The notes beneath the pieces were generated by a model that was not told the DNA's origin, did not search any database, and saw nothing but the letters and a program-made list of their open reading frames with translations. 64,000 nt of DNA from Escherichia phage phAPEC8. Position 1 is the first letter of the stretch. Each line of letters begins with the position of its first letter. The DNA lies in sequence record NC_020079.1, one strand, 5' to 3'. Shown piece after piece: positions 49,467 to 60,171 of this stretch. Made by a program: the position numbers and the translations under genes.

Positions 49467-49988
49467 TTAACTCCCCTTTGGTAGATAGAAACCATGCACT
49501 TTATCTCGATAAACAAGACGCATATCACGTTCCCAGTGTGTCCTTATATTCCGTTTCTTGAAGTATAGAGCACCTTTAGTAACATCTAAAACAGACCGCA
49601 ATTCAGGAAAATGTTTCTCTAAATAAAGTAAACGCTCCGCTATTGCTTTTGCTTCCTGCCACTTATCTTTCTCTGTTACGTTAAAAGTTTTCGCATATGA
49701 GAATTGCCCTTTCTGGAACAAGACTCCTCTGACTGTGTTAGGGAAGTAGGTATCATTTCTTCTGTTGATTACCACATTCCCAACGGCATTCATTCCTTTT
49801 TTACCCAGACCGCGACCTTCTGCGTAAATTGCACAAGCTAATAGAATTTTATCATTATATTGCTTTGTACATTTGTGAACTACTTTAGCGGTTTTTACGT
49901 TTGCAGCTTCGGCTTTCGCCACAACAGGTGTAAATGTAAAAGCAGTTAAGGATAGTAACGCAACTGTTACAAAGTTTTTTATCAGCAA
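49467..49988 (-). CDS. secreted cell wall hydrolase, SleB/Hydrolase_2-like (endolysin candidate)
   Basis: 173 aa; N-terminal signal peptide (LLSLTAFTFTPVVAKAEA) and core ACAIYAEGRGLGKKGMNAVGNVVINRRN...FPNTVRGVLFQKGQFS matching the SleB-type signature; TTG start with SD AGGAGG and its own promoter. Confidence 0.55.
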   Translation of the reverse strand: MLIKNFVTVALLSLTAFTFTPVVAKAEAANVKTAKVVHKCTKQYNDKILLACAIYAEGRGLGKKGMNAVGNVVINRRNDTYFPNTVRGVLFQKGQFSYAKTFNVTEKDKWQEAKAIAERLLYLEKHFPELRSVLDVTKGALYFKKRNIRTHWERDMRLVYRDKVHGFYLPKGS

Positions 49989-50020
49989 ATTTTGCCTCCT
50001 TTTTAAGTTAACGAACTTCT

Positions 50021-50049
50021 AGTATAACACGATAGAGGCTTTATTGCAA
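50021..50049 (-). promoter_or_regulatory. sigma70-like promoter on minus strand (TTGCAA-N17-TATACT)
   Basis: Minus-strand TTGCAA (50044-50049), 17-nt spacer, TATACT (50021-50026), 32 nt upstream of the TTG start at 49988. Confidence 0.45.
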
Positions 50050-50069
50050 GAGGGGGATTTCTCCCCCTC
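50050..50069 (-). terminator. stem-loop downstream of TerD-like gene (possible terminator, weak U-tract)
   Basis: Perfect stem GAGGGGGA/TCCCCCTC with TTTC loop; minus-strand downstream is UUGCAAUAAA. Confidence 0.3.
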
Positions 50070-50087
50070 AAAATCATTTGTTAATTA

Positions 50088-50690
50088 TTATGGACATTCA
50101 TACCATTCTTTTTTACCACCAAAGGCCATCACCACATCGCAAATATCCAGACCAGCTTTACCTACACCATATGCTTTCAGCTTCCATTCCCCATCTTCAC
50201 GAACCAGCGAAGCCACGTGGCAGATTGTGTTGCCAGCTACTTCAGGAGCCAGGAAGTCAAAATCCAGAATTTCCACATTGCGCTCGGAGTCGAAGATTTT
50301 AAGCATACCTTCAGAAGCATGACCAAAACGTTTCAGACCTGTATCATCATCAATGGTCAGAACAAAGGCAATCTCTTGTGCATCAGGAGAGATTTTAGCC
50401 AGAGTAATATCAATCTGCTCCATGCTGCCAGTTCCATCACGAACATCGTCACCAGCGAAGGTAGAACGTTCAGGATCAAACTTGTTAGCATAGCAAACCA
50501 GATGACGTGCAGACAGCATTTCAGGATTGCCAGCGGCATTATGACGACAAACCAGTGCACTTACATCCAGATCCAGTTTAGAATCAGATTTCCAAGAGAA
50601 TTCCAGGCGCAGTTCTTTCAGAGCCGGAGCAACTTTCTTCAGGGAAATTTTTTCGCTAGAACCTTTTTTCAGGGAAATTTTATCAGTCAT
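50088..50690 (-). CDS. TerD-family protein (tellurium-resistance TerD/TerZ/TerE-like)
   Basis: 200 aa; alignable block-by-block with E. coli TerD as recalled: ISLKKG..ISLKK, LDLDVSAL, AGDDVRDGTGS, IAFVLTIDD, FG...G, GEWKLKAYGVGKAGL. Confidence 0.8.
   Translation of the reverse strand: MTDKISLKKGSSEKISLKKVAPALKELRLEFSWKSDSKLDLDVSALVCRHNAAGNPEMLSARHLVCYANKFDPERSTFAGDDVRDGTGSMEQIDITLAKISPDAQEIAFVLTIDDDTGLKRFGHASEGMLKIFDSERNVEILDFDFLAPEVAGNTICHVASLVREDGEWKLKAYGVGKAGLDICDVVMAFGGKKEWYECP
50638..50681 (-). repeat. 14-bp direct repeat (TTCAGGGAAATTTT x2, 30-bp period) at the 5' end of the TerD-like gene
   Basis: Two identical copies at 50638-50651 and 50668-50681 encode the duplicated KISLKK peptide at the TerD N-terminus; a similar sequence opens the vWA gene. 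Confidence 0.5.
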
Positions 50691-50705
50691 CTTTTGTCTC
50701 CTCTA

Positions 50706-50975
50706 TTATTTAAGTGTAATACCAGTTACAGTCAATTCTACTTCCAAAAGCTTAGATGTGTTTTGGATTGATACTAATTGTGCATGATGGTTTAGTTCTA
50801 CAGCAGAATAATCATTTTCCCCATCATCTACTTTTAAATAAACAATGATTTCACTAAGGTCTAAACCATTTTCGTCAAATGCATTTTCATAGACGAAAGT
50901 ATCTCCTACATCCAAATCTTTAATGGTAAGGCATCGTTTATTTACTTTTTGCTCATCAATTTCGAAGTTTAACAC
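50706..50975 (-). CDS. small protein, paralog B of a duplicated family preceding Ter-type genes
   Basis: 89 aa; GTG start with SD AGGAGG overlapping the upstream gene end; paralogous to ORF 51997..52275 (shared DLDVG.TF...Y, ...VE(V/L)(D/E)L(E/T)VT(N/G)ITLK). Confidence 0.45.
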   Translation of the reverse strand: MLNFEIDEQKVNKRCLTIKDLDVGDTFVYENAFDENGLDLSEIIVYLKVDDGENDYSAVELNHHAQLVSIQNTSKLLEVELTVTGITLK

Positions 50976-51204
50976 TTCTTCCTCCTAATGTTATCTCCGG
51001 TTTGTATATACGAAGAATTATAGCATTTTCATTTTCTTTGTCAACCCATTCTTCATAATCGGGCCATACATGAATCTCTACTCTACTTACAATATCTTCC
51101 ATCCGCACAATCCCAATGAAATACTCTTTGAGACTGCGCATAATGAAAGCTTCTCTCTCGCGCCAATAATTTTCTACGACTTGAGAGGCAAGCTCGTCGA
51201 TCAT
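50956..51204 (-). CDS. hypothetical small protein
   Basis: 82-aa ORF between the vWA and paralog B genes; start overlaps the vWA stop. Confidence 0.4.
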   Translation of the reverse strand: MIDELASQVVENYWREREAFIMRSLKEYFIGIVRMEDIVSRVEIHVWPDYEEWVDKENENAIILRIYKPEITLGGRSVKLRN

Positions 51205-51995
51205 TTTTTAGCACCTACTTTAACAACCCACTCTCCGAACTCTTCAGATAAGAGTTTGTCATAAAGCTCTGAATCTGTCAAGTCTAAATCTTTAATGCCA
51301 ATGAAACCAACATTATCATAAGCATTTGCCAGTTCTTTCAGGAAGCCAAACTTCTCATTACCAACGCCAACCATGAACCAATAAATAGGTTTATTCTTAT
51401 TCTCTTCGATAAGACGACGAACAGCACTAGGATCACCATTCTCACCATCCGTTTGGAAGAATACAACACCAGGGGTAACGTCAGCACCTGGTTCAGATAC
51501 AGCTACAACCTTTTCACGCTCTACAGATACTGTTTCAGTTTTACCAAGCAGACGATTAAAGAAGCCTTTCTTTGGAGCCTCCTCTTGTACCACTTGTTTA
51601 GTGGTAATATATTTGGTAACAGTGCCAAAATACTCGTCGTAGATATCTGCCATTACAGGGGCGTAGTTTGTTCCACCTCCGATACGAACATTACGCATAC
51701 ATTTACCAACATAATCATCGTAAACGTCTGCTGTTGCTGGGGTAAGCTCTTGAGAACTCGTATTAAAGGCCCACATATCAATTTGTTCATTATCGTCGAA
51801 CAGCATACCAAAAGGAAGCAGTTTACCTACAAAATCACTCACTACCCCACTAGCATATAGACCATGCATACTACCAGAAATATCTAGAGCACATGCTACA
51901 CGAAGAACAATCTTACCTTCATTCAGGTTCTTATTCTTTTTCAGAGAGAAAGCAAGGTTTTCTTGACGTTTTTTCAGGCTGATTTTCTCGGACAT
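51201..51995 (-). CDS. von Willebrand factor A domain protein (TerY-like context) with TerD-like N-terminal peptide
   Basis: 264 aa; MIDAS motif DISGSM, GGTNYAP and TDGENGD; N-terminus MSEKISLKK...FSLKK echoes the TerD N-terminal repeat. Confidence 0.65.
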   Translation of the reverse strand: MSEKISLKKRQENLAFSLKKNKNLNEGKIVLRVACALDISGSMHGLYASGVVSDFVGKLLPFGMLFDDNEQIDMWAFNTSSQELTPATADVYDDYVGKCMRNVRIGGGTNYAPVMADIYDEYFGTVTKYITTKQVVQEEAPKKGFFNRLLGKTETVSVEREKVVAVSEPGADVTPGVVFFQTDGENGDPSAVRRLIEENKNKPIYWFMVGVGNEKFGFLKELANAYDNVGFIGIKDLDLTDSELYDKLLSEEFGEWVVKVGAKK

Positions 51996-51996
51996 A

Positions 51997-52275
51997 TTAT
52001 TTCTCCTTCTTAAGTGTAATGTTGGTAACTTCTAAATCTACTTCCACCATCTTTGTATCTGGTGGGATGCAATGAGTATAGCCTCGTTGTGCTAGTGATC
52101 CATTAATACAGATCGCACTGTTTGTGGAATTTTTAATGAACACCAAGTTACGGTAGGTATCCAACCCTGCGTCTTCATAGGCATCATAATACATGAATGT
52201 GGCCCCTACGTCAAGATCTTCGAAAGCAATAGGTAAATCCTGACTTTTTTCTTCTTGAATATTGAATCTAAACAC
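51997..52275 (-). CDS. small protein, paralog A of a duplicated family preceding Ter-type genes
   Basis: Track ORF 51997..52341 trimmed to a GTG with SD GAGGAGG that overlaps the upstream gene end, the same arrangement as paralog B. Confidence 0.4.
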   Translation of the reverse strand: MFRFNIQEEKSQDLPIAFEDLDVGATFMYYDAYEDAGLDTYRNLVFIKNSTNSAICINGSLAQRGYTHCIPPDTKMVEVDLEVTNITLKKEK

Positions 52276-52831
52276 GCATACCTCCTCTACCAATTTTGAA
52301 GCCCAAATCGTAAGCTTCCTTAGTGATCTTTTGTAACTCACTTATAGGAAGTGTTACAAGAGGATCATCTTCTTCAATTTCCATCTTGTCATCTTCTGTT
52401 TCAATGAGAGTATTATGCACTTTGTGATAAGGGTTGTCAACACGTTTAAACTTATTCTTTTCTGTGCTGAAAAAACAATCTGGATCTTCTTCACCATCAC
52501 CCCAACCTTGGTTAGGATCTCCGTCAGATTGTTCTGTAGGGATTTCACCTGTAAAGTACTCTTCCAGCACCATAGCGATACCGTCCCTTGGATTTGAGGA
52601 ATGCATCAAATCACAAACCTTACTCCAATCCATAGCCCATTCAAATCGTTCACGAACACCATTTTCATCCTCCTTTCCAGAGAAAACACAACCATAACTA
52701 TCATAGTTGCCATACATCTCTTCAATAACAACACCGTCCTTCAAAAGAAAGAGATAACAAGGTGATCCGTCGAAAGAAGTAGAAAGGGCAGCTTTGCCCG
52801 ATTCTTTGCACAAAAAGCTAAAACAACCCAT
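52268..52831 (-). CDS. hypothetical acidic protein
   Basis: 187 aa; Asp/Glu-rich central region (EQSDGDPNQGWGDGEEDPDCFF, ETEDDKMEIEEDDP). Confidence 0.45.
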   Translation of the reverse strand: MGCFSFLCKESGKAALSTSFDGSPCYLFLLKDGVVIEEMYGNYDSYGCVFSGKEDENGVRERFEWAMDWSKVCDLMHSSNPRDGIAMVLEEYFTGEIPTEQSDGDPNQGWGDGEEDPDCFFSTEKNKFKRVDNPYHKVHNTLIETEDDKMEIEEDDPLVTLPISELQKITKEAYDLGFKIGRGGMRV

Positions 52832-53229
52832 TACAAACCCTCCTTCAGATTATCAAGAGCTACAGTGGTTTCACAAAATTCTCCATAAGCTTTATGATGT
52901 TCCAGAAAAGCTTCGGGTCCACCCCAGTCATTATCTTGTGTATTCCAGCCATCAATAAAAGCATCTTCAATGATTGTGATCAGTTCCTGTCGAGTCAACG
53001 TAATGGTATCAGGTTTCTGCGTAGTTTCCACACGGAACCCTGGTTCTTCATAAAAACCTTTAGTTACAATGGATTCTAACTCTTCTGCATCACAGAGGAA
53101 GTAGCCACAAAGATAACACCCACCGTCATCATCTTTCATTACTTCATAAACTTCACCACTTGCTAACTTGATGAAAAGAGTAGGGTCTGTTACTGTAAGT
53201 TTTAAAAGAATACCTGTTGGATTATACAT
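52831..53229 (-). CDS. hypothetical protein
   Basis: 132-aa ORF; ATG overlaps the 3' end of the small acidic ORF upstream. Confidence 0.45.
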   Translation of the reverse strand: MYNPTGILLKLTVTDPTLFIKLASGEVYEVMKDDDGGCYLCGYFLCDAEELESIVTKGFYEEPGFRVETTQKPDTITLTRQELITIIEDAFIDGWNTQDNDWGGPEAFLEHHKAYGEFCETTVALDNLKEGL

Positions 53230-53395
53230 CTTCTTCCTCCTCTAAGATATGGAACCCGTAATTACAATAATCCTGAAAGGTTTCGTGTGCAAGATCTTCT
53301 ATATCTTCTTGAGACATATCATCTTCAATTTCGATATCTACAACCTCATTGCATCCACACCAAGCCGTTTCAATATTCACTCGTAATATTTTCAT
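53222..53395 (-). CDS. small highly acidic protein (57 aa, below ORF-track cutoff)
   Basis: Hand-translated ORF MKILRVNIETAWCGCNEVVDIEIEDDMSQEDIEDLAHETFQDYCNYGFHILEEEEDV; preceded by GGAGGAGGAGGAG; its ATG shares a nucleotide with the upstream stop (TAATG). Confidence 0.4.
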   Translation of the reverse strand: MKILRVNIETAWCGCNEVVDIEIEDDMSQEDIEDLAHETFQDYCNYGFHILEEEEDV

Positions 53396-53595
53396 TACTC
53401 CTCCTCCTCCTCATTGAAGTCAATATCTGCAAGGAGTTCGAATTTACGGAAGTTACGACAACCTTCATAAATATAACAATCACGACAAACTGCTAGAACA
53501 CTTGGGGGATATATGCCTCCCATCGGTGCGAATCGTTTTTCGTCATCATAACGGACACCAATGTCTTCATCAATTATATAGATACGGATTCTCAT
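53395..53595 (-). CDS. small acidic Cys-containing protein
   Basis: 66 aa ending in NEEEEE; start overlaps the upstream gene stop. Confidence 0.4.
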   Translation of the reverse strand: MRIRIYIIDEDIGVRYDDEKRFAPMGGIYPPSVLAVCRDCYIYEGCRNFRKFELLADIDFNEEEEE

Positions 53596-54704
53596 TTACC
53601 AAGCCCTCGTTTCACAGCAGCTACCATCCCGTCTTCCAGAGATTGAACTTCATTAATATAATCAACACGAGCAGCACGGGCTTCCGTATTGATGCGGTTA
53701 GTTTCTTCCAACATCTTAACCAAGTTTTCCTGATCGTGACGCAGAGTTTCAATATCCAACACTTGACGGTTAGCCAGTGCTGCTGCTTCGATCTGATTCT
53801 GTGTGGCAAGATCGCTACCCAGTTTAATTGCCAGGTTAAATTCATCAAGAACGTTATTCTGCGTCTCTGCTGCTTTCATTTGACGTAAGCTCTCGATATA
53901 CATTGAGAAGTTAGCAGAGTAAGCAGGAATAACATTATTTACTATGTTACGCGCAGATCGCATTAAGCTTGCAGAAACTTTTTGCATACCTTGTACACGC
54001 GGTCCCATTTGGACACACAGTAGGCGCAATGCTTTTAAATCTGCAATACGAATCTCCAGAAGATCCAAAGTATCTCGGATCACTTGTCGCTGTTCTACTG
54101 CATCTTCTGGAAGAGCAGCCAAAGCTTGTTCTTCTTTTTCATAGGTTGCTGTTAGAAGCTGCATATCTCGGTTCAAACTTGCAGCATATTGTCCAATAGC
54201 TTGATGTAGCTTTTCAAGATATACCAAGGAATCTTCTTCTTTGCGAATATCCATTTGAAGGTTCTTTACCAACTCTTCAATACGGTTATTAACATTATCA
54301 AACTCCCCAAACAGATCTTCTTTCATACCCATAACTTTTTTAATGAGTTTAGTAATACCCTTGCTTTGTTTAATAGAGTTTGGATCAAGTTGTTTTGCCT
54401 GTTTAATCAAAGCTGTGAGTCGTTCACTCATCTGATCGCCTTGATTACTACGTTGATGTTTTAATACCTCGGCATTCAAGGAACGCAAGGTTGTTCCTGC
54501 CTCTGCCCCAATCTCTTCAATCTCTTGTCGGGTCATAGAAGGCAAAACTGGAACTTCTTGCGGTGCCGCTGGTGCATAAACAGGACTGGCATCTAACACG
54601 CTTGGAGCGAATACAGATTTACTTGCATCGGTTGTTGCAGCAAATACGCTCATTTCAGGCTTCTTCTGACCACCAGTAGCTGCTTTTAAAAATGGACTTG
54701 TCAT
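53592..54704 (-). CDS. coiled-coil protein, TelA-like (toxic anion resistance family) candidate
   Basis: 370 aa, predominantly helical/coiled-coil; TelA assignment rests on size, composition and proximity to TerD/TerC/vWA genes, not on a verified signature. Confidence 0.35.
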   Translation of the reverse strand: MTSPFLKAATGGQKKPEMSVFAATTDASKSVFAPSVLDASPVYAPAAPQEVPVLPSMTRQEIEEIGAEAGTTLRSLNAEVLKHQRSNQGDQMSERLTALIKQAKQLDPNSIKQSKGITKLIKKVMGMKEDLFGEFDNVNNRIEELVKNLQMDIRKEEDSLVYLEKLHQAIGQYAASLNRDMQLLTATYEKEEQALAALPEDAVEQRQVIRDTLDLLEIRIADLKALRLLCVQMGPRVQGMQKVSASLMRSARNIVNNVIPAYSANFSMYIESLRQMKAAETQNNVLDEFNLAIKLGSDLATQNQIEAAALANRQVLDIETLRHDQENLVKMLEETNRINTEARAARVDYINEVQSLEDGMVAAVKRGLGK

Positions 54705-55291
54705 TCTTCATTCTCCTCTTCTGCATCTCTTATATATGGTGAAACACCGTACTCTTTAGCTACTTTAACCCAATCGTCCCATTTATACAACCATAATTTT
54801 CCTTCGGTCCCTTCTTTATCTGATTTCAACCACATATTAGGTTGCTTACCTGGGTACATGCGATTAGGTTTACGATTATAACCTCTAACACATCTTGTCG
54901 CAAACCCATCTACCAGAACAAGAACATATTTATATTCGTGGTTCAACGGCTCTTTGGAAGTGGCTTTAGGATTAGCCCCTAATTCTGCTGCCAGTTTTTG
55001 CCAATGAGCACCGTGCCTACTAAACTTACCCATACAACCATCAATAGCATGAGCAATTTCGTGCTTCATTGTGTCCACGATCATATCTCTTGTGGAGTTC
55101 TTATGCAAGTGCCAATTTACAACAACAATTTTATCTCGGTAGTTGCACCAACCGAAAGAGTTATTCACTTTGTTTCTAACACAAGCTTTATATCCTGCTT
55201 CACGTAACATGTTGTAGTAAACAGGAAAATCTTCTTTTATTTCCTGCATCACTTCCCACCACAAGAGTTGCAAGTCTCTCTCGGTATGCAT
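54701..55291 (-). CDS. SprT-like zinc metalloprotease domain protein
   Basis: 196 aa; HEIAHAIDG (HExxH) followed 8 residues later by HGAHW, the SprT-family pair of motifs. Confidence 0.6.
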   Translation of the reverse strand: MHTERDLQLLWWEVMQEIKEDFPVYYNMLREAGYKACVRNKVNNSFGWCNYRDKIVVVNWHLHKNSTRDMIVDTMKHEIAHAIDGCMGKFSRHGAHWQKLAAELGANPKATSKEPLNHEYKYVLVLVDGFATRCVRGYNRKPNRMYPGKQPNMWLKSDKEGTEGKLWLYKWDDWVKVAKEYGVSPYIRDAEEENEE

Positions 55292-55294
55292 AAC

Positions 55295-55888
55295 TTACAC
55301 CTTAAAAGCGAAATGCGTGGTCGTGGCTTCAAAATCAGGGCCAGATAAACTTGCACTGAAATCTGAAATATTTGTAATTAAAAAGCTTTTATGCATACCT
55401 AACACAGCCACGCTTTCAATATCTTCTACTAACATTTCAATCATGTTAGAAACATGGCTGAACGTATAGTTTTGTTTTTTGATGGTGTAGAAAGAAAGAC
55501 TCCCACCTGCTGTATAAGATACCTCTTCAAAATCTTTAATCGTATATTGTGTACCATCAGTAAAGAAAATGGTAGCTTTATTAGTAGCACGTTTCTTGTT
55601 TTTTGGTCCTTTTTTACGTTTACTGCGAGTAGGCAAACCGTTTGGGAACACCGTAGCTACAAATTCTTCAGGGGAAACCTCCTTACCGAAATCATAATCG
55701 TAAGAAACAGCGTCTATACACTCGTCGTCTTCATTTTTAAAATAATGAAAATAGGGCCAATTTGAGAGATTATCGAGCATCTTATGCGCATCCACAACAG
55801 AGAACGTATCCCTCAAAGCACGTGTGATTTGCAAAGCATTAGGCAAACTTTTAACACCTGTAATGGAAGTACGAATAGAAATTGTCAT
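55295..55888 (-). CDS. hypothetical protein
   Basis: 197-aa ORF with a basic central patch (RSKRKKGPKNKKRATNK). Confidence 0.45.
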   Translation of the reverse strand: MTISIRTSITGVKSLPNALQITRALRDTFSVVDAHKMLDNLSNWPYFHYFKNEDDECIDAVSYDYDFGKEVSPEEFVATVFPNGLPTRSKRKKGPKNKKRATNKATIFFTDGTQYTIKDFEEVSYTAGGSLSFYTIKKQNYTFSHVSNMIEMLVEDIESVAVLGMHKSFLITNISDFSASLSGPDFEATTTHFAFKV

Positions 55889-55902
55889 TGTTTTTCTCCT
55901 TA

Positions 55903-56355
55903 TTAACGTCGCTTGCTACGAGATGAACTCTTTTTACTTAAAGGGCTATTGTAAGATTTACGAGTTGTATAGCTACTATTTGTTTTAAAAGTTTGTCTCG
56001 GCTTTTCATAAGTTTTTATCTCTTGTTTAGGCTTACCATAAAAATTAGTTTTCGGTTTAGGTGTATTATAATGCTTATTAATAATCGTTCTGTTATCGTT
56101 ATAATCCCCACTGCTACGATTACTACCACCACTCATCATATGCCCTAACAACATACCTGTAGCAAACTCACCAACACCGCTACTACTAGAACCGCCACCA
56201 TTGTTGATAATAGTTGTATCTCCGTCAGATCCTTGTTGAGCGTATTGTTGAGGAGGTTGTTGGTATTGTGCAGGATTTGTTTCATCCTCGCAAGCTGTTA
56301 AAAAGATACAACCAATTAAAATCAGGGCTAGTTTTTTCATATTTGCTTTCCTCAT
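55903..56355 (-). CDS. lipoprotein (signal peptide + lipobox LTAC), Gly/Ser/Gln-rich
   Basis: Track ORF 55903..56415 trimmed to MRKANMKKLALILIGCIFLTAC; classic n-h-c signal region with lipobox Cys; alternative start at 56340. Confidence 0.5.
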   Translation of the reverse strand: MRKANMKKLALILIGCIFLTACEDETNPAQYQQPPQQYAQQGSDGDTTIINNGGGSSSSGVGEFATGMLLGHMMSGGSNRSSGDYNDNRTIINKHYNTPKPKTNFYGKPKQEIKTYEKPRQTFKTNSSYTTRKSYNSPLSKKSSSRSKRR

Positions 56356-56527
56356 TTTGACTATTAATACATCTGTGTTTGAAATCTCCAGAGAAGCAAT
56401 AAAGTTGCTCTCCATCTCGGTATAAACTCACTTTACTGCCGTTGATTACGCTTGTCAATACAAAAATTACAACAAACAACCCTATTGCAAAACAAATATT
56501 TTCAAACACAACCAACAAGTATTTCAT
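56282..56527 (-). CDS. small membrane protein overlapping the lipoprotein gene start
   Basis: 81-aa ORF with N-terminal TM helix (LLVVFENICFAIGLFVVIFVL); its 3' part overlaps the lipoprotein gene in another frame, so true extent is uncertain. Confidence 0.3.
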   Translation of the reverse strand: MKYLLVVFENICFAIGLFVVIFVLTSVINGSKVSLYRDGEQLYCFSGDFKHRCINSQNEESKYEKTSPDFNWLYLFNSLRG

Positions 56528-56874
56528 TTTAAAAATACCTCATCATCAGTCTCATTATCCCAGAAGAACAAATCCCAACCATTCGGATCATTCCATTTGG
56601 CTGCTGGAGAAGTCCATATTTGTTCGATATCAATATTCAAAACTTCACCGTTTCGTTTTGAAACAGCTTTAGTTAATTCCCAACGAGATACAGGCTCTAC
56701 TTCCCCTGAACCACTCCCACAACAAGCTACCACGTTAGGAGGCAAATTAATTGGATCTTTGGTCACGATCATAACGCTTACCCCAGGGTAAACTTTTGAA
56801 AGATAATCTAAAACGTAATCCACATCACCAGATAAATCCCAAACAAGTTCTTGAATTTCATCAAAATTATTCAT
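56524..56874 (-). CDS. hypothetical protein
   Basis: 116-aa acidic ORF immediately downstream of the TerC-like gene. Confidence 0.45.
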   Translation of the reverse strand: MNNFDEIQELVWDLSGDVDYVLDYLSKVYPGVSVMIVTKDPINLPPNVVACCGSGSGEVEPVSRWELTKAVSKRNGEVLNIDIEQIWTSPAAKWNDPNGWDLFFWDNETDDEVFLK

Positions 56875-56916
56875 AAGTCTCTCCTATAAAATAGCCTCCC
56901 GAAGGAGGCTCATCTA

Positions 56917-57891
56917 TTAAACAGCAGCTTCTTCTTTTTCAGGGAAGATAAAGCTTGCAATAACACCAAGAGCTAATGTGCCTAGAACAATCATCAGACT
57001 TACGTTAGGGGAAATATCATGCGGGAGGAATGACCACTTGGCATGAAGTGTTTCACCGAACGGGTGATACATAAGTTTAGCACCGACAAATACCAGAACC
57101 ACAGCAACAGCTTTCTCTAAGTGAACCAGATATTTCACAGCCACACTTAACACAAAGAAAAGTGCACGTAAACCAAGAACAGCCATCAGCATTGCAGAAT
57201 AAACTAGCAGAGGTTCTTGTGTCACACCGATCACAGCCGGAACTGAATCAAAAGAGAAGACAATATCTGTAAGCTCAATAACAAACACACAAAGAAGAGC
57301 AGGAGTTGCATATTTAATACCATTCTTAATGGTGATGAACTTTTCACCATCTAGTGCATTGTGCACAGGCAGAACTTTACCTACTAAACGAACAGCCCAA
57401 TGCTTAGAGTAATCAATATCCTCTTCTTCGTCACCACCTTTGATGATAGCCACGGCAGACCAAGCTACAATCAAACCGAACAACACTTGGACCGACCAAT
57501 GAAGGTTAAACAAAGCGGTCCCTGCTGCAACAAAAATACCTCGGAAGACAATGGCTCCTGCAATCCCCCAAAGTAAAATCTTATGTTGGAGATGTGTGCT
57601 CTTAATTCCAAAGCTTGCAAAAATTGCCATGAACACCATCAAGTTATCTACAGAAAGACTCTTTTCCAACACATAGCCACTTAGGAAAAGCGCGGCAAAC
57701 TCTTTACCATGTTCTACCCAAATGAATGCGTAATATCCTAAAGCTAAAGCAATCCAAAAAACAGACCAAAGCAAAGCAGATTTAATTCCAATTTCTTTAT
57801 TCTCTTTATGACCAAAGAAATCGATACCAATAGACAATGCTAAAATACCAACCAAAACAACTACATCAATAATGGGGAAACCAAGTTGCAT
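56917..57891 (-). CDS. TerC-family integral membrane protein
   Basis: 324 aa, multi-pass hydrophobic; contains EKSLSVDNLMVF and ELTDIVFSFDSVPAVIG, matching the two conserved TerC blocks (SxDN and ExxDxxFxxDSxPA). Confidence 0.6.
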   Translation of the reverse strand: MQLGFPIIDVVVLVGILALSIGIDFFGHKENKEIGIKSALLWSVFWIALALGYYAFIWVEHGKEFAALFLSGYVLEKSLSVDNLMVFMAIFASFGIKSTHLQHKILLWGIAGAIVFRGIFVAAGTALFNLHWSVQVLFGLIVAWSAVAIIKGGDEEEDIDYSKHWAVRLVGKVLPVHNALDGEKFITIKNGIKYATPALLCVFVIELTDIVFSFDSVPAVIGVTQEPLLVYSAMLMAVLGLRALFFVLSVAVKYLVHLEKAVAVVLVFVGAKLMYHPFGETLHAKWSFLPHDISPNVSLMIVLGTLALGVIASFIFPEKEEAAV

Positions 57892-57910
57892 TATTTTCTC
57901 CTTTCTCTTT

Positions 57911-57929
57911 GCGGGGAACCACTCCCCGC
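57911..57929 (-). promoter_or_regulatory. 5'-UTR stem-loop upstream of the TerC-like gene
   Basis: Stem GCGGGGA/TCCCCGC with 5-nt loop, 20 nt upstream of the ATG at 57891 and downstream of a promoter-like element; no U-tract. Confidence 0.3.
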
Positions 57930-57941
57930 CTCATGTGATAC

Positions 57942-57969
57942 ATCTTACTCTATTCTAAAACTTTGTCAA
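57942..57969 (-). promoter_or_regulatory. possible sigma70-like promoter (TTGACA-N16-TAAGAT) upstream of the TerC-like gene
   Basis: Consensus -35 TTGACA (57964-57969) with a weak -10 TAAGAT (57942-57947). Confidence 0.3.
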
Positions 57970-57972
57970 CAC

Positions 57973-58194
57973 TTATTTTGAAGAACTTGAGGAAAAGATC
58001 CCACGTAGTACAGCCATGATAAATGCCACACACACCACAGTCCAGAAGGTGACAGGAACAGTGATATCTGTGTGACCCATCATTTCAACAACGTAGTTAT
58101 AAGCCAGCAGCAGAAGCCATGCTGGAATCATACTAATCAGAAAAGCAATAACAAACACAATAATCACTGCAAGAATACCTGCTAAAACGCCCAT
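57973..58194 (-). CDS. small hydrophobic membrane protein (3 predicted TM segments)
   Basis: 73 aa, almost entirely hydrophobic (ILAVIIVFVIAFLISMI, WLLLLAYNYVV, VTFWTVVCVAFIMAVL). Confidence 0.45.
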   Translation of the reverse strand: MGVLAGILAVIIVFVIAFLISMIPAWLLLLAYNYVVEMMGHTDITVPVTFWTVVCVAFIMAVLRGIFSSSSSK

Positions 58195-58207
58195 AATATT
58201 TCTCCTC

Positions 58208-58681
58208 TTAAAGTTTATAAATAGTCACATCGTGACCTGTTTTTACTAAAGTTTCTTCAATCATCACTTGGATGATAGCCCAATTACCTCCAGCATGTCC
58301 AGCGCCAATCATAGGTAAGCCGATCTTACATTTTTGGTCACGGAGAAGCAAATCGTTAGCCATAGCTATTAGTGCATCGTAAAGTGCATCATAGTCCAAC
58401 TGACGACCTTTAGCATTGTATCCGTAACGGTATTGCCCGTATAGATTATATACCAAAGGGTCTGATTGTTCGTCTGGCACTCCTAAACTAAAACAACCTA
58501 GTTTACTTTGATCACCAGCCATTGTGTCTAAGTCTGCTGCATATGCGTAAGGAAATGCTCGTTTGATTTGTGGGGCAATACCTGCCCCCATATTACACAT
58601 ACAGTTGCAACAATGAGCAATAACAGTTACTTCACCTGCTTTAGCGGCATCAATAAGATTACCTGTTTTCATTTTAAGCAT
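58208..58681 (-). CDS. macro domain protein, TARG1/DarG-like (ADP-ribose-processing hydrolase)
   Basis: Track ORF 58208..58786 trimmed to the ATG with SD AAGGAG just after the upstream stop; motifs VIAHCCNCMCNMGAGIA and GLPMIGAGHAGGNW...VTIYKL parallel human TARG1 (AHCISEDCRMGAGIA, MPRIGCGLDRLQW...ITVYTL, from memory). Confidence 0.65.
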   Translation of the reverse strand: MLKMKTGNLIDAAKAGEVTVIAHCCNCMCNMGAGIAPQIKRAFPYAYAADLDTMAGDQSKLGCFSLGVPDEQSDPLVYNLYGQYRYGYNAKGRQLDYDALYDALIAMANDLLLRDQKCKIGLPMIGAGHAGGNWAIIQVMIEETLVKTGHDVTIYKL

Positions 58682-58694
58682 TTTTAGCTCCTTA

Positions 58695-59522
58695 TTACAG
58701 AATGTGTTGTTTTGTGTAACGATCCAAGAATTCAAAGTTTTCAGCATACTTTGAAATTCGGTTGTAACCTTCTCCCAAGCATCCAAAGAAAAGTTGCTCT
58801 ACATAGTAATGTGGCAATTGGCTAAGAATGATTTTGAAGTCTTCATGATTTTGGCCCATAAGATACTTAATAGGACGAACAAGACACTGTGCATCACGTT
58901 CTTCATTAATCATTTTAACAAACGCTTCCGGTGTATTAATGTAGTTAAAATTCAGTTTAGCTTCGGTATCTGCTTGATTACCTTCATATTTTGCAAAATA
59001 CAGGAAGTAAACATCATTTTTAACTTGATTTTCATTAAGGATCTCAATCAGTTTGTCTTCATGCGTTCCAGTGATATTTACATCATCAATGAATACAAGC
59101 TTCTTATCACCCCAGAATTCTTTGTTACAGTAGAATGTATCCCCATCAATAAGTTTCTTACGACTAGCTTTATCCAAGAAACCATAATCGTTGATATAGC
59201 TAACTTTACGATGAATAATGTCCAGTTCTGCTGAACGACCTTGATCATATTGTGATTGCAACATATTAAAGTAATTAATAAAATGATCTGTCATCATTGT
59301 TGCAGCATTATGCACATGGTTGTAAGGAGAAGGAATGATAACAAATTGTTCCCCAATATGTTTCATTGCCACTTGAGCAAAAAACTGAAGTGCCAATTCT
59401 TTACCCATACGACGCGCGGCTTGGTTACTACCAAATTTCAATTTTGAATAATCTTGGATATCAAAAGTAGCAGTTTCCAGGTCATCAAATTTATTTGCAA
59501 AAATTTGAGTTTGATTACGCAT
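58695..59522 (-). CDS. type I phosphoribosyltransferase-fold protein (PRPP-binding loop)
   Basis: 275 aa; KKLVFIDDVNITGTHEDK matches the PRPP-binding motif (hydrophobic-DD-x-x-TG-x-T) of type I PRTases and PRPP synthetase homologues. Confidence 0.5.
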   Translation of the reverse strand: MRNQTQIFANKFDDLETATFDIQDYSKLKFGSNQAARRMGKELALQFFAQVAMKHIGEQFVIIPSPYNHVHNAATMMTDHFINYFNMLQSQYDQGRSAELDIIHRKVSYINDYGFLDKASRKKLIDGDTFYCNKEFWGDKKLVFIDDVNITGTHEDKLIEILNENQVKNDVYFLYFAKYEGNQADTEAKLNFNYINTPEAFVKMINEERDAQCLVRPIKYLMGQNHEDFKIILSQLPHYYVEQLFFGCLGEGYNRISKYAENFEFLDRYTKQHIL

Positions 59523-60171
59523 TTACAATTTCTCCTCTTTTAAGTTTCTCTAGTAAGTCGTTAGGGTTCTTAATATGACAGAAGTTAAATCCTAAGTCAA
59601 CACATTTTCCATCATATTCTTCACTATCGCCTACGTGCAATACTTCGTGCCCTAACAGAGGGATCGGAGAATACGTGAGCGTGCGAGCAAAGAATCGCGG
59701 ATCTGGTTTACAAAGTAAAGCTTCATCCGAGAAATGGGTGAACTCAAAACAATTCCAACTATCAAACTTACAAGCACGACGCAGGATATCCCCTGATATA
59801 AAGTTGGTATTGCTCTTAATACTCAAATCATAACGTCCCGAAAGATACAGCAAGTACATCGGCAGATCCACGGCTACGTGTGGTGGAAACTTAAGGAACC
59901 ACTGTTCACACTCGAAACGAAGCTTTGCAGACTTCCAAGGTGTTATCCCAAGTTCAGAACCAAGTCTTTCCCAGGCGTATGCTGCACACTCGGCTTTGCC
60001 TTGAAGTGCTGCATTATCCAGTTCCTTTTTGATCTTCTTATAAGCTGCTCTTGCTTCCACTTCCGTAATATCTCCATATTTTGCGATAGTCCAGGCTCGC
60101 ATGTCTGCGTAATTGGAGTTTGCTGTGATCAGTGTGTTCCATACATCAAAAGAGATATGTTTAATAGTCAT
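59515..60171 (-). CDS. HAD-superfamily hydrolase-like protein (putative phosphatase)
   Basis: 218 aa; N-terminal ISFDVWNTLI (motif I-like, Dx(W)xT) and C-terminal LHVGDSEEYD (motif IV GDxxxD); second Asp of motif I is replaced, so assignment is tentative. Confidence 0.4.
   Translation of the reverse strand: MTIKHISFDVWNTLITANSNYADMRAWTIAKYGDITEVEARAAYKKIKKELDNAALQGKAECAAYAWERLGSELGITPWKSAKLRFECEQWFLKFPPHVAVDLPMYLLYLSGRYDLSIKSNTNFISGDILRRACKFDSWNCFEFTHFSDEALLCKPDPRFFARTLTYSPIPLLGHEVLHVGDSEEYDGKCVDLGFNFCHIKNPNDLLEKLKRGEIVNA

Follow-up and report, generated by a model that had tools for sequence, protein, structure and literature searches.

Two paralogous small genes in the Ter-type cluster of Escherichia phage phAPEC8: duplication of a small gene alone beside vWA-TerF-like and TerD genes

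The genome of Escherichia phage phAPEC8 (NC_020079.1) carries two similar small genes, one directly ahead of a vWA gene and one directly ahead of a TerD gene. A sequence-only reading had proposed that a segmental duplication generated two units here, each composed of a small partner and a TerD-like gene, and the question raised by this locus is whether such a unit was copied or whether the small gene was duplicated on its own. The window analyzed is a 64,000-nucleotide stretch of this genome, to which all coordinates refer. Its source is a Phapecoctavirus, a phAPEC8-like coliphage in the Stephanstirmvirinae, and positions 50000-54800 show 99% identity to Escherichia phage PNJ1809-36 and to about 60 further records. 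The genes of interest all lie on the minus strand and are given below from upstream to downstream, together with the sites discussed in the text.

53592-54704, minus strand: TelA-family protein, the upstream member of the conserved TelA...vWA-TerD module
53395-53595, minus strand: 66-aa gene
53222-53395, minus strand: 57-aa gene with a weak DUF7167 match (23.2 bits, slightly below the 24.4 cut-off)
52831-53229, minus strand: 132-aa gene
52268-52831, minus strand: 187-aa gene, phrog_14928, no assigned function
52281-52286, minus strand: Shine-Dalgarno sequence AGGAGG of paralog A, within the 3'-terminal part of the 187-aa gene
51997-52275, minus strand: small paralog A, 92 aa, GTG start, phrog_11278, predicted SH3-like beta-barrel
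51201-51995, minus strand: vWA-TerF-like protein, 264 aa, PF10138, MIDAS motif D-I-S-G-S
51936-51986, minus strand: vWA codons for the N-terminal double motif KISLKK...FSLKK
50956-51204, minus strand: 82-aa gene, phrog_22387, no assigned function
50981-50986, minus strand: Shine-Dalgarno sequence AGGAGG of paralog B
50706-50975, minus strand: small paralog B, 89 aa, GTG start, phrog_11278
50088-50690, minus strand: TerD-family protein, 200 aa, PF02342
50638-50681, minus strand: TerD 14-bp repeat pair, encoding K-I-S-L-K twice

Upstream of these genes lies an extended Ter-type cluster, at 54701-60171 of the window, with the following members.

59515-60171: HAD-like hydrolase
58695-59522: PRTase_3
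58208-58786: Macro domain
56917-57891: TerC
54701-55291: SprT-like protein

The presence of the SprT-like, TerC, Macro, PRTase_3, and HAD-like genes upstream indicates that the region is a phage-borne Ter-type cluster. Anantharaman, Iyer, and Aravind are said to have set out in 2012 that Ter systems consist of terZABCDEF and telA, with abbreviated TerC-TelA-TerF(vWA)-TerD sets in phages. The TerC, TelA, vWA-TerF-like, TerD, PRTase_3, HAD-like hydrolase, and Macro proteins of the window correspond to the components known from Ter systems carried by phages, whereas ~90-aa SH3-like proteins beside vWA/TerD are absent from the described components. Phage-borne Ter-type clusters of such composition have been described, and a membrane-associated response to stress or superinfection has been proposed for the Ter module (Iyer et al. 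2021, PMC7824862). A Ter-type cluster has also been noted in phage phiKp34 (PMC8386662). Both the Ter cluster and the PHROG family phrog_11278 are already known, and what is new here is that the small family is strictly linked to vWA/TerD and has been duplicated recurrently. The gene next after TerD encodes a Hydrolase_2 cell-wall hydrolase (49467-49988), and the same is seen in nearly all related loci.

The two small proteins align end to end with 35% identity (E = 3e-15), and both match phrog_11278, a profile of 92 positions, over their full lengths (A, residues 1-92, E = 3.1e-51; B, residues 1-89, E = 7e-45). The PHROGs entry gives neither function nor context; the strict vWA/TerD linkage and the copy-number pattern of the family were worked out here. 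Each small gene starts at a GTG exactly 5 nt after its AGGAGG and overlaps the 3' end of the gene upstream, A by 8 nt with the 187-aa gene and B by 20 nt with the 82-aa gene. The alignment and the coordinates thereby bear out what had been read from the letters alone, namely, that the two ORFs are similar, that A precedes the vWA gene and B precedes TerD, and that both begin at a GTG behind AGGAGG within the end of another gene. Homologs in other phages begin with an ATG at the position aligned to these GTG codons, in support of the starts chosen here. In all comparisons, pN is well below pS, with dN/dS of approximately 0.2 to 0.5 and dS saturated, indicating that both small ORFs are under purifying selection. 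A and B are true, anciently diverged paralogs and real genes.

The small protein is predicted to fold as a compact SH3-like beta-barrel, on the basis of an AlphaFold2 model of paralog A built from a 24-sequence alignment (pLDDT 81.5, pTM 0.70) and of paralog B in a fusion model with TerD (pLDDT >90 over residues ~20-80). This likeness, which concerns the predicted fold only, would be to small SH3-like/Tudor/KOW-type beta-barrels, such as the uL2 C-domain, the DtxR/IdeR C-terminal SH3 domain, FeoA, EF-P domain I, and HspQ. A Foldseek search of BFVD matched only the family itself and generic uncharacterized phage barrels. Pfam, NCBIfam, and PADLOC gave no match with the A, B, 82-aa, or 187-aa proteins, and the family profile, when searched against PDB sequences, had no hit below an E value of 0.87. 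A family search of 5.8 billion clustered proteins yielded 22 clusters, and an HMM scan of 1.84 billion representatives yielded 20 hits, all of 54 to 93 aa except for one 1191-aa hit (P0093), which is an fn3-repeat protein and was rejected as spurious. No bacterial homologs of the ~90-aa protein were detectable by HMMER in either set, and the family appears to be confined to phages of the phAPEC8/phi92-like (Stephanstirmvirinae) type and of a related ~120- to 150-kb type.

The genes that follow A and B belong to different families and are not paralogs. The 264-aa protein matches PF10138 (vWA-TerF-like) with an E value of 2e-37 (129.7 bits; cut-off, 29.4). TerD matches PF02342 over residues 5-179 with an E value of 3e-28 (98.9 bits; cut-off, 25.3) and also matches the solved TerD structures 2KXT (1.5e-15) and 3IBZ (2.9e-14). 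The vWA MIDAS motif, D38-I-S-G-S42 (D-x-S-x-S), is kept in all four phage orthologs and in 58 of 59 homologs. In the phage TerD, FAGDDVRDGTG aligns to HTGDNRTGEGDG of 2KXT, an acidic G-D-D/N...G putative Ca-binding loop. The vWA protein has no PF02342 match up to an E value of 0.1, and thus no trace of a degraded TerD domain is detected in it; the name "TerD-type gene," which had been applied to both downstream genes, has to be replaced by PF10138 in this case. When the vWA protein and the phage TerD are compared by BLASTP, only the N-terminal 20 to 57 residues match (E = 0.008), and the likeness beyond residue ~20 is not significant. In the ter operon of E. coli and Serratia, TerF is a fusion protein in which a vWA domain follows the TerD domain at the C-terminal end. 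The phage vWA protein is like TerF in matching the vWA-TerF-like model, and its h-S-L-x-K motifs ahead of the MIDAS strand are those found in the linkers of TerD-vWA fusions, but it is without a TerD domain, TerD being encoded by a separate gene.

Both downstream genes open with KISLKK (vWA, MSEKISLKK; TerD, MTDKISLKKGSSEKISLKK), as had been noticed earlier, and the TerD peptide is indeed encoded by a 14-bp direct repeat, TTCAGGGAAATTTT, which the 64-kb window contains exactly twice (50638-50651 and 50668-50681; chance expectation, 0.08). All but one of the 59 vWA-TerF-like homologs (58) have an h-[SDN]-L-x-K motif just ahead of the MIDAS strand, and in 51 it is doubled; the motif-bearing set takes in a Neobacillus protein and TerD-vWA fusions, in which the motif lies in the linker. 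The phage TerD has the doubled N-terminal [IV]-S-L-x-K strands, and its ISLKKGSSEKISLKK aligns to the N-terminal VSLSKGG--NVSLSK of 2KXT, a solved TerD structure from Klebsiella. A single small gene is present in phi92 and in Klebsiella phage 05F01, yet the vWA and TerD proteins of both phages carry the same N-termini. The KISLKK openings are ancient signatures of the vWA-TerF-like and TerD families, unrelated to the small-gene duplication, and the 14-bp repeat encodes the canonical two-strand TerD N-terminus and is not a by-product of duplication. This corrects an appealing misreading, in which a family signature is taken as a sign of a recent two-gene duplication.

The copy number of the small gene was surveyed by tblastn against a phage collection, and gene orders were read locus by locus. 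Both copies were found in ~63 phapecoctavirus records, and an A-type copy only, with 60 to 80% identity to A, was found in ~56 phi92-like (Justusliebigvirus) records. The phages phiWec179, phiWec186, and phiWec190 have both copies, and 05F01 has one, upstream of vWA. The gene orders, with L numbers for individual loci, are as follows.

phi92: TelA ... 187 aa-small-vWA-TerD
phiWec190, L008: small-vWA-81/82 aa-small-TerD
L010, L011, L013, L014, L017: vWA-small-TerD, without the 82-aa gene
L012: small-TerD only, the contig ending just before the small gene
L015, L016: vWA-small-small-TerD, with a tandem pair that is 31% identical
L004/5, L006, L007: vWA and TerD adjacent or nearly so, without a small-family member

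The comparison of related phages gives zero, one, or two small genes per locus, and all members with a readable context (the window, L001-L003, and L008-L017) adjoin vWA-TerF and/or TerD. Since related phages keep vWA-TerD without the small gene, the core module can do without the small protein, and the family is a dispensable accessory of variable copy number. Small genes at the equivalent positions in L006 (110 and 129 aa), L007 (116 aa), and L004 (228 aa) were considered as hidden distant homologs and rejected, with hhalign probabilities of <1%. The tandem pairs (L015:1180-1725 and L016:3001-3546) belong to a separate metagenomic phage lineage, in which the small gene alone seems to have been duplicated independently or at an earlier time. 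The 82-aa gene is present only in lineages with both small copies.

In a neighbor-joining tree of ~90 aligned residues, in which most deep nodes have <70% bootstrap support, the copies located upstream of vWA form one clade (80% bootstrap) nested among the copies located upstream of TerD. The tree and the gene orders suggest that the vWA-small-TerD order is probably ancestral, with the A copy as a derived clade, and that the likely direction of duplication was from B to A; the support for this direction is modest because the alignment has only ~90 columns. In the most economical scenario, the starting point was vWA-small-TerD, and the ancestral phage of the E. coli/Klebsiella Stephanstirmvirinae would have acquired a second copy of the small gene ahead of vWA. 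B would later have been lost in the phi92-like and 05F01-like lineages, and the phAPEC8/phiWec lineage would have gained the 82-aa gene between vWA and B.

Other explanations of the locus have to be weighed against this account. The small ORFs might not be genuine coding genes but overlapping-frame artifacts, or leaders regulating the downstream Ter genes, and their GTG starts, their overlaps with the upstream genes, and the absence of Pfam and NCBIfam matches would fit such a view. It is nevertheless scarcely credible, given that the amino acid sequences are conserved over their full lengths across phages saturated at synonymous sites, that relatives use ATG at the same start position, that the Shine-Dalgarno sequences are strong and ideally spaced, that the AlphaFold fold is confident, and that both ORFs belong to a PHROG family. 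A segmental duplication that copied the small gene together with a TerD-like gene, leaving vWA and TerD as diverged copies or as genes that share a duplicated 5' end, is in turn very unlikely. Both genes do start with M-[ST]-[DE]-K-I-S-L-K-K, and the DNA around the small-gene stop, the Shine-Dalgarno sequence, the ATG, and the KISLKK codons aligns well between the two units, but this junction likeness is explained by the shared Shine-Dalgarno sequence, the ATG, and the identical coding of the peptide. In addition, the two genes fall into different Pfam families that are alike only in the first ~20 residues, the motif is general among vWA-TerF-like homologs and present in solved TerD, the single-copy phages phi92 and 05F01 have the same N-termini on both genes, and in L015 and L016 the small gene alone was duplicated. 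The occurrence of vWA-small-TerD and vWA-small-small-TerD in distant phages indicates that the small gene duplicates on its own. The genes upstream of A and B, of 187 and 82 aa, show no significant similarity to each other (E = 0.085), and a share of theirs in the duplication was ruled out. The duplication was confined to the small gene. Of the proposal of two duplicated partner-plus-TerD-like units, the paralogy of the small genes and the tight coupling of each to the next gene stand, and the copying of a two-gene unit does not, which suggests that the two "units" are units in organization and not in origin. Unequal crossing-over at the KISLKK-coding microhomology, by tandem duplication of vWA plus small gene and loss of the first vWA copy, would in principle give the observed gene order; with A and B at 35% identity, this route is set aside here.

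The polarity of the small-gene duplication can also be read the other way, with A as the ancestral copy and with B and the 82-aa gene as a cassette inserted between vWA and TerD in the phAPEC8/phiWec lineage, B being a copy of A or an acquisition from another phage. Phi92 and the more divergent 05F01 hold only the A-position copy, with TerD directly after vWA; within this group the 82-aa gene occurs only where B does; and the phi92 spacer at the insertion site is promoter-like. We regard this polarity as unlikely but worth bearing in mind, since five to seven more distant lineages lack the 82-aa gene and have family members in no other position than that between vWA and TerD, and since the A copies form the derived clade while the B-position copies are paraphyletic. 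The account that we prefer is that A and B are old paralogs of the phage-restricted family phrog_11278 within the TelA...vWA-TerD module, that the small gene alone was duplicated, that B occupies the ancestral position, and that the small proteins have an accessory role; taken as a whole, we consider this account likely.

The spacing of the genes and the signals around them bear on how A and B are expressed. The stop codon of A lies 1 nt from the ATG of vWA, and the last codons of A, AAG GAG AAA TAA, contain the vWA Shine-Dalgarno sequence. The vWA stop and the start of the 82-aa gene share ATGA, and the stop of B lies 15 nt from the TerD ATG. From this spacing we infer that translation of A is coupled to that of vWA and translation of B to that of TerD. 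The K-K-E-K tail of the A-type copies (AAGGAGAAATAA, 51997-52008) is accounted for by this encoding of the vWA Shine-Dalgarno sequence in the last codons, likewise in L001, L002, and L008; the B-type copies are without the K-K-E-K tail, and there the Shine-Dalgarno sequence lies after the stop codon. Two promoter-like sites were found upstream of the small genes.

52440->52412, minus strand: promoter-like TTGACA-17-CATAAT (11/12 consensus match) inside the 187-aa gene, 136 nt before A
51044->51017, minus strand: match to the sigma-70 consensus, TTGACA-16-TGcTATAAT, inside the 82-aa gene, 41 nt before B

The site inside the 82-aa gene matches at 12/12 positions with an extended -10, and its hexamers are invariant in phiWec190 and the metagenomic L008, in which the flanking codons vary. 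The block at 52412-52440 is kept in phi92 and phiWec190. The conserved promoter-like sites, together with the coupling, suggest two co-expressed pairs, A with vWA and B with TerD. In phi92, a 72-nt spacer between vWA and TerD (L001:5067-5138) replaces the 82-aa gene and B and contains a promoter-like TTGACT-16-TAAAAT, and TerD seems to keep a private putative promoter with or without B. Directly after the TerD stop lies a GC-rich hairpin without a T-run, GAGGGGGA-TTTC-TCCCCCTC (50050-50069), followed by a promoter-like site on the minus strand (50049->50021); the hairpin may mark a transcript end or boundary.

The small protein would most likely serve the phage Ter module as an accessory or adaptor subunit. 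The barrels could act as soluble subunits in a Ter-like module that responds to membrane stress or superinfection, and A may have become specialized toward vWA and B toward TerD. When B and TerD were co-folded as one chain joined by a linker, from a shallow paired alignment and without PAE or contacts, the pTM was 0.56, as expected for two independent domains; this weak test lends no support to a fixed complex. A bolder idea, which we hold to be distinctly improbable, is that the barrels are dedicated, previously unrecognized phage Ter subunits that dock on the N-terminal h-S-L-x-K hairpin common to TerD and vWA-TerF. Such docking, if true, would explain both the place of the small gene directly upstream of a gene that opens with the motif and the existence of two specialized copies, and during infection the barrels could then tune or redirect the Ter complex of the host or of the phage, superinfection exclusion being one example. 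Ter systems occur widely in both bacteria and phages, and a small family of variable copy number beside vWA/TerD offers a cheap experimental handle on the interactions of Ter components.

Some related records have features that call for care. Campylobacter phages B15 (MG065650), A150 (MG065639), and C3 (MG065656), Acinetobacter phage ABPW7 (OP562383), and Klebsiella phage ZCKP1 (MH252123) carry host labels that look doubtful: B15 and ZCKP1 show ~98 to 99% protein identity to A and B of the window, ABPW7 shows 98.8% DNA identity over the 4.8-kb region, and A150 and C3 match paralog A at 63%, the same as phi92-like E. coli phages. The vWA-TerF-like gene of Escherichia phage KKP 3954 (P0054) is annotated with 158 aa, about half of the 264-aa protein, which may reflect a frameshift, a pseudogene, or an annotation error. 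In Escherichia phage EF1-1 (PQ571289.1), the B-type copy matches at one place only, under an "RNA ligase" annotation, which reflects either an unusual gene arrangement or a fault in the annotation.
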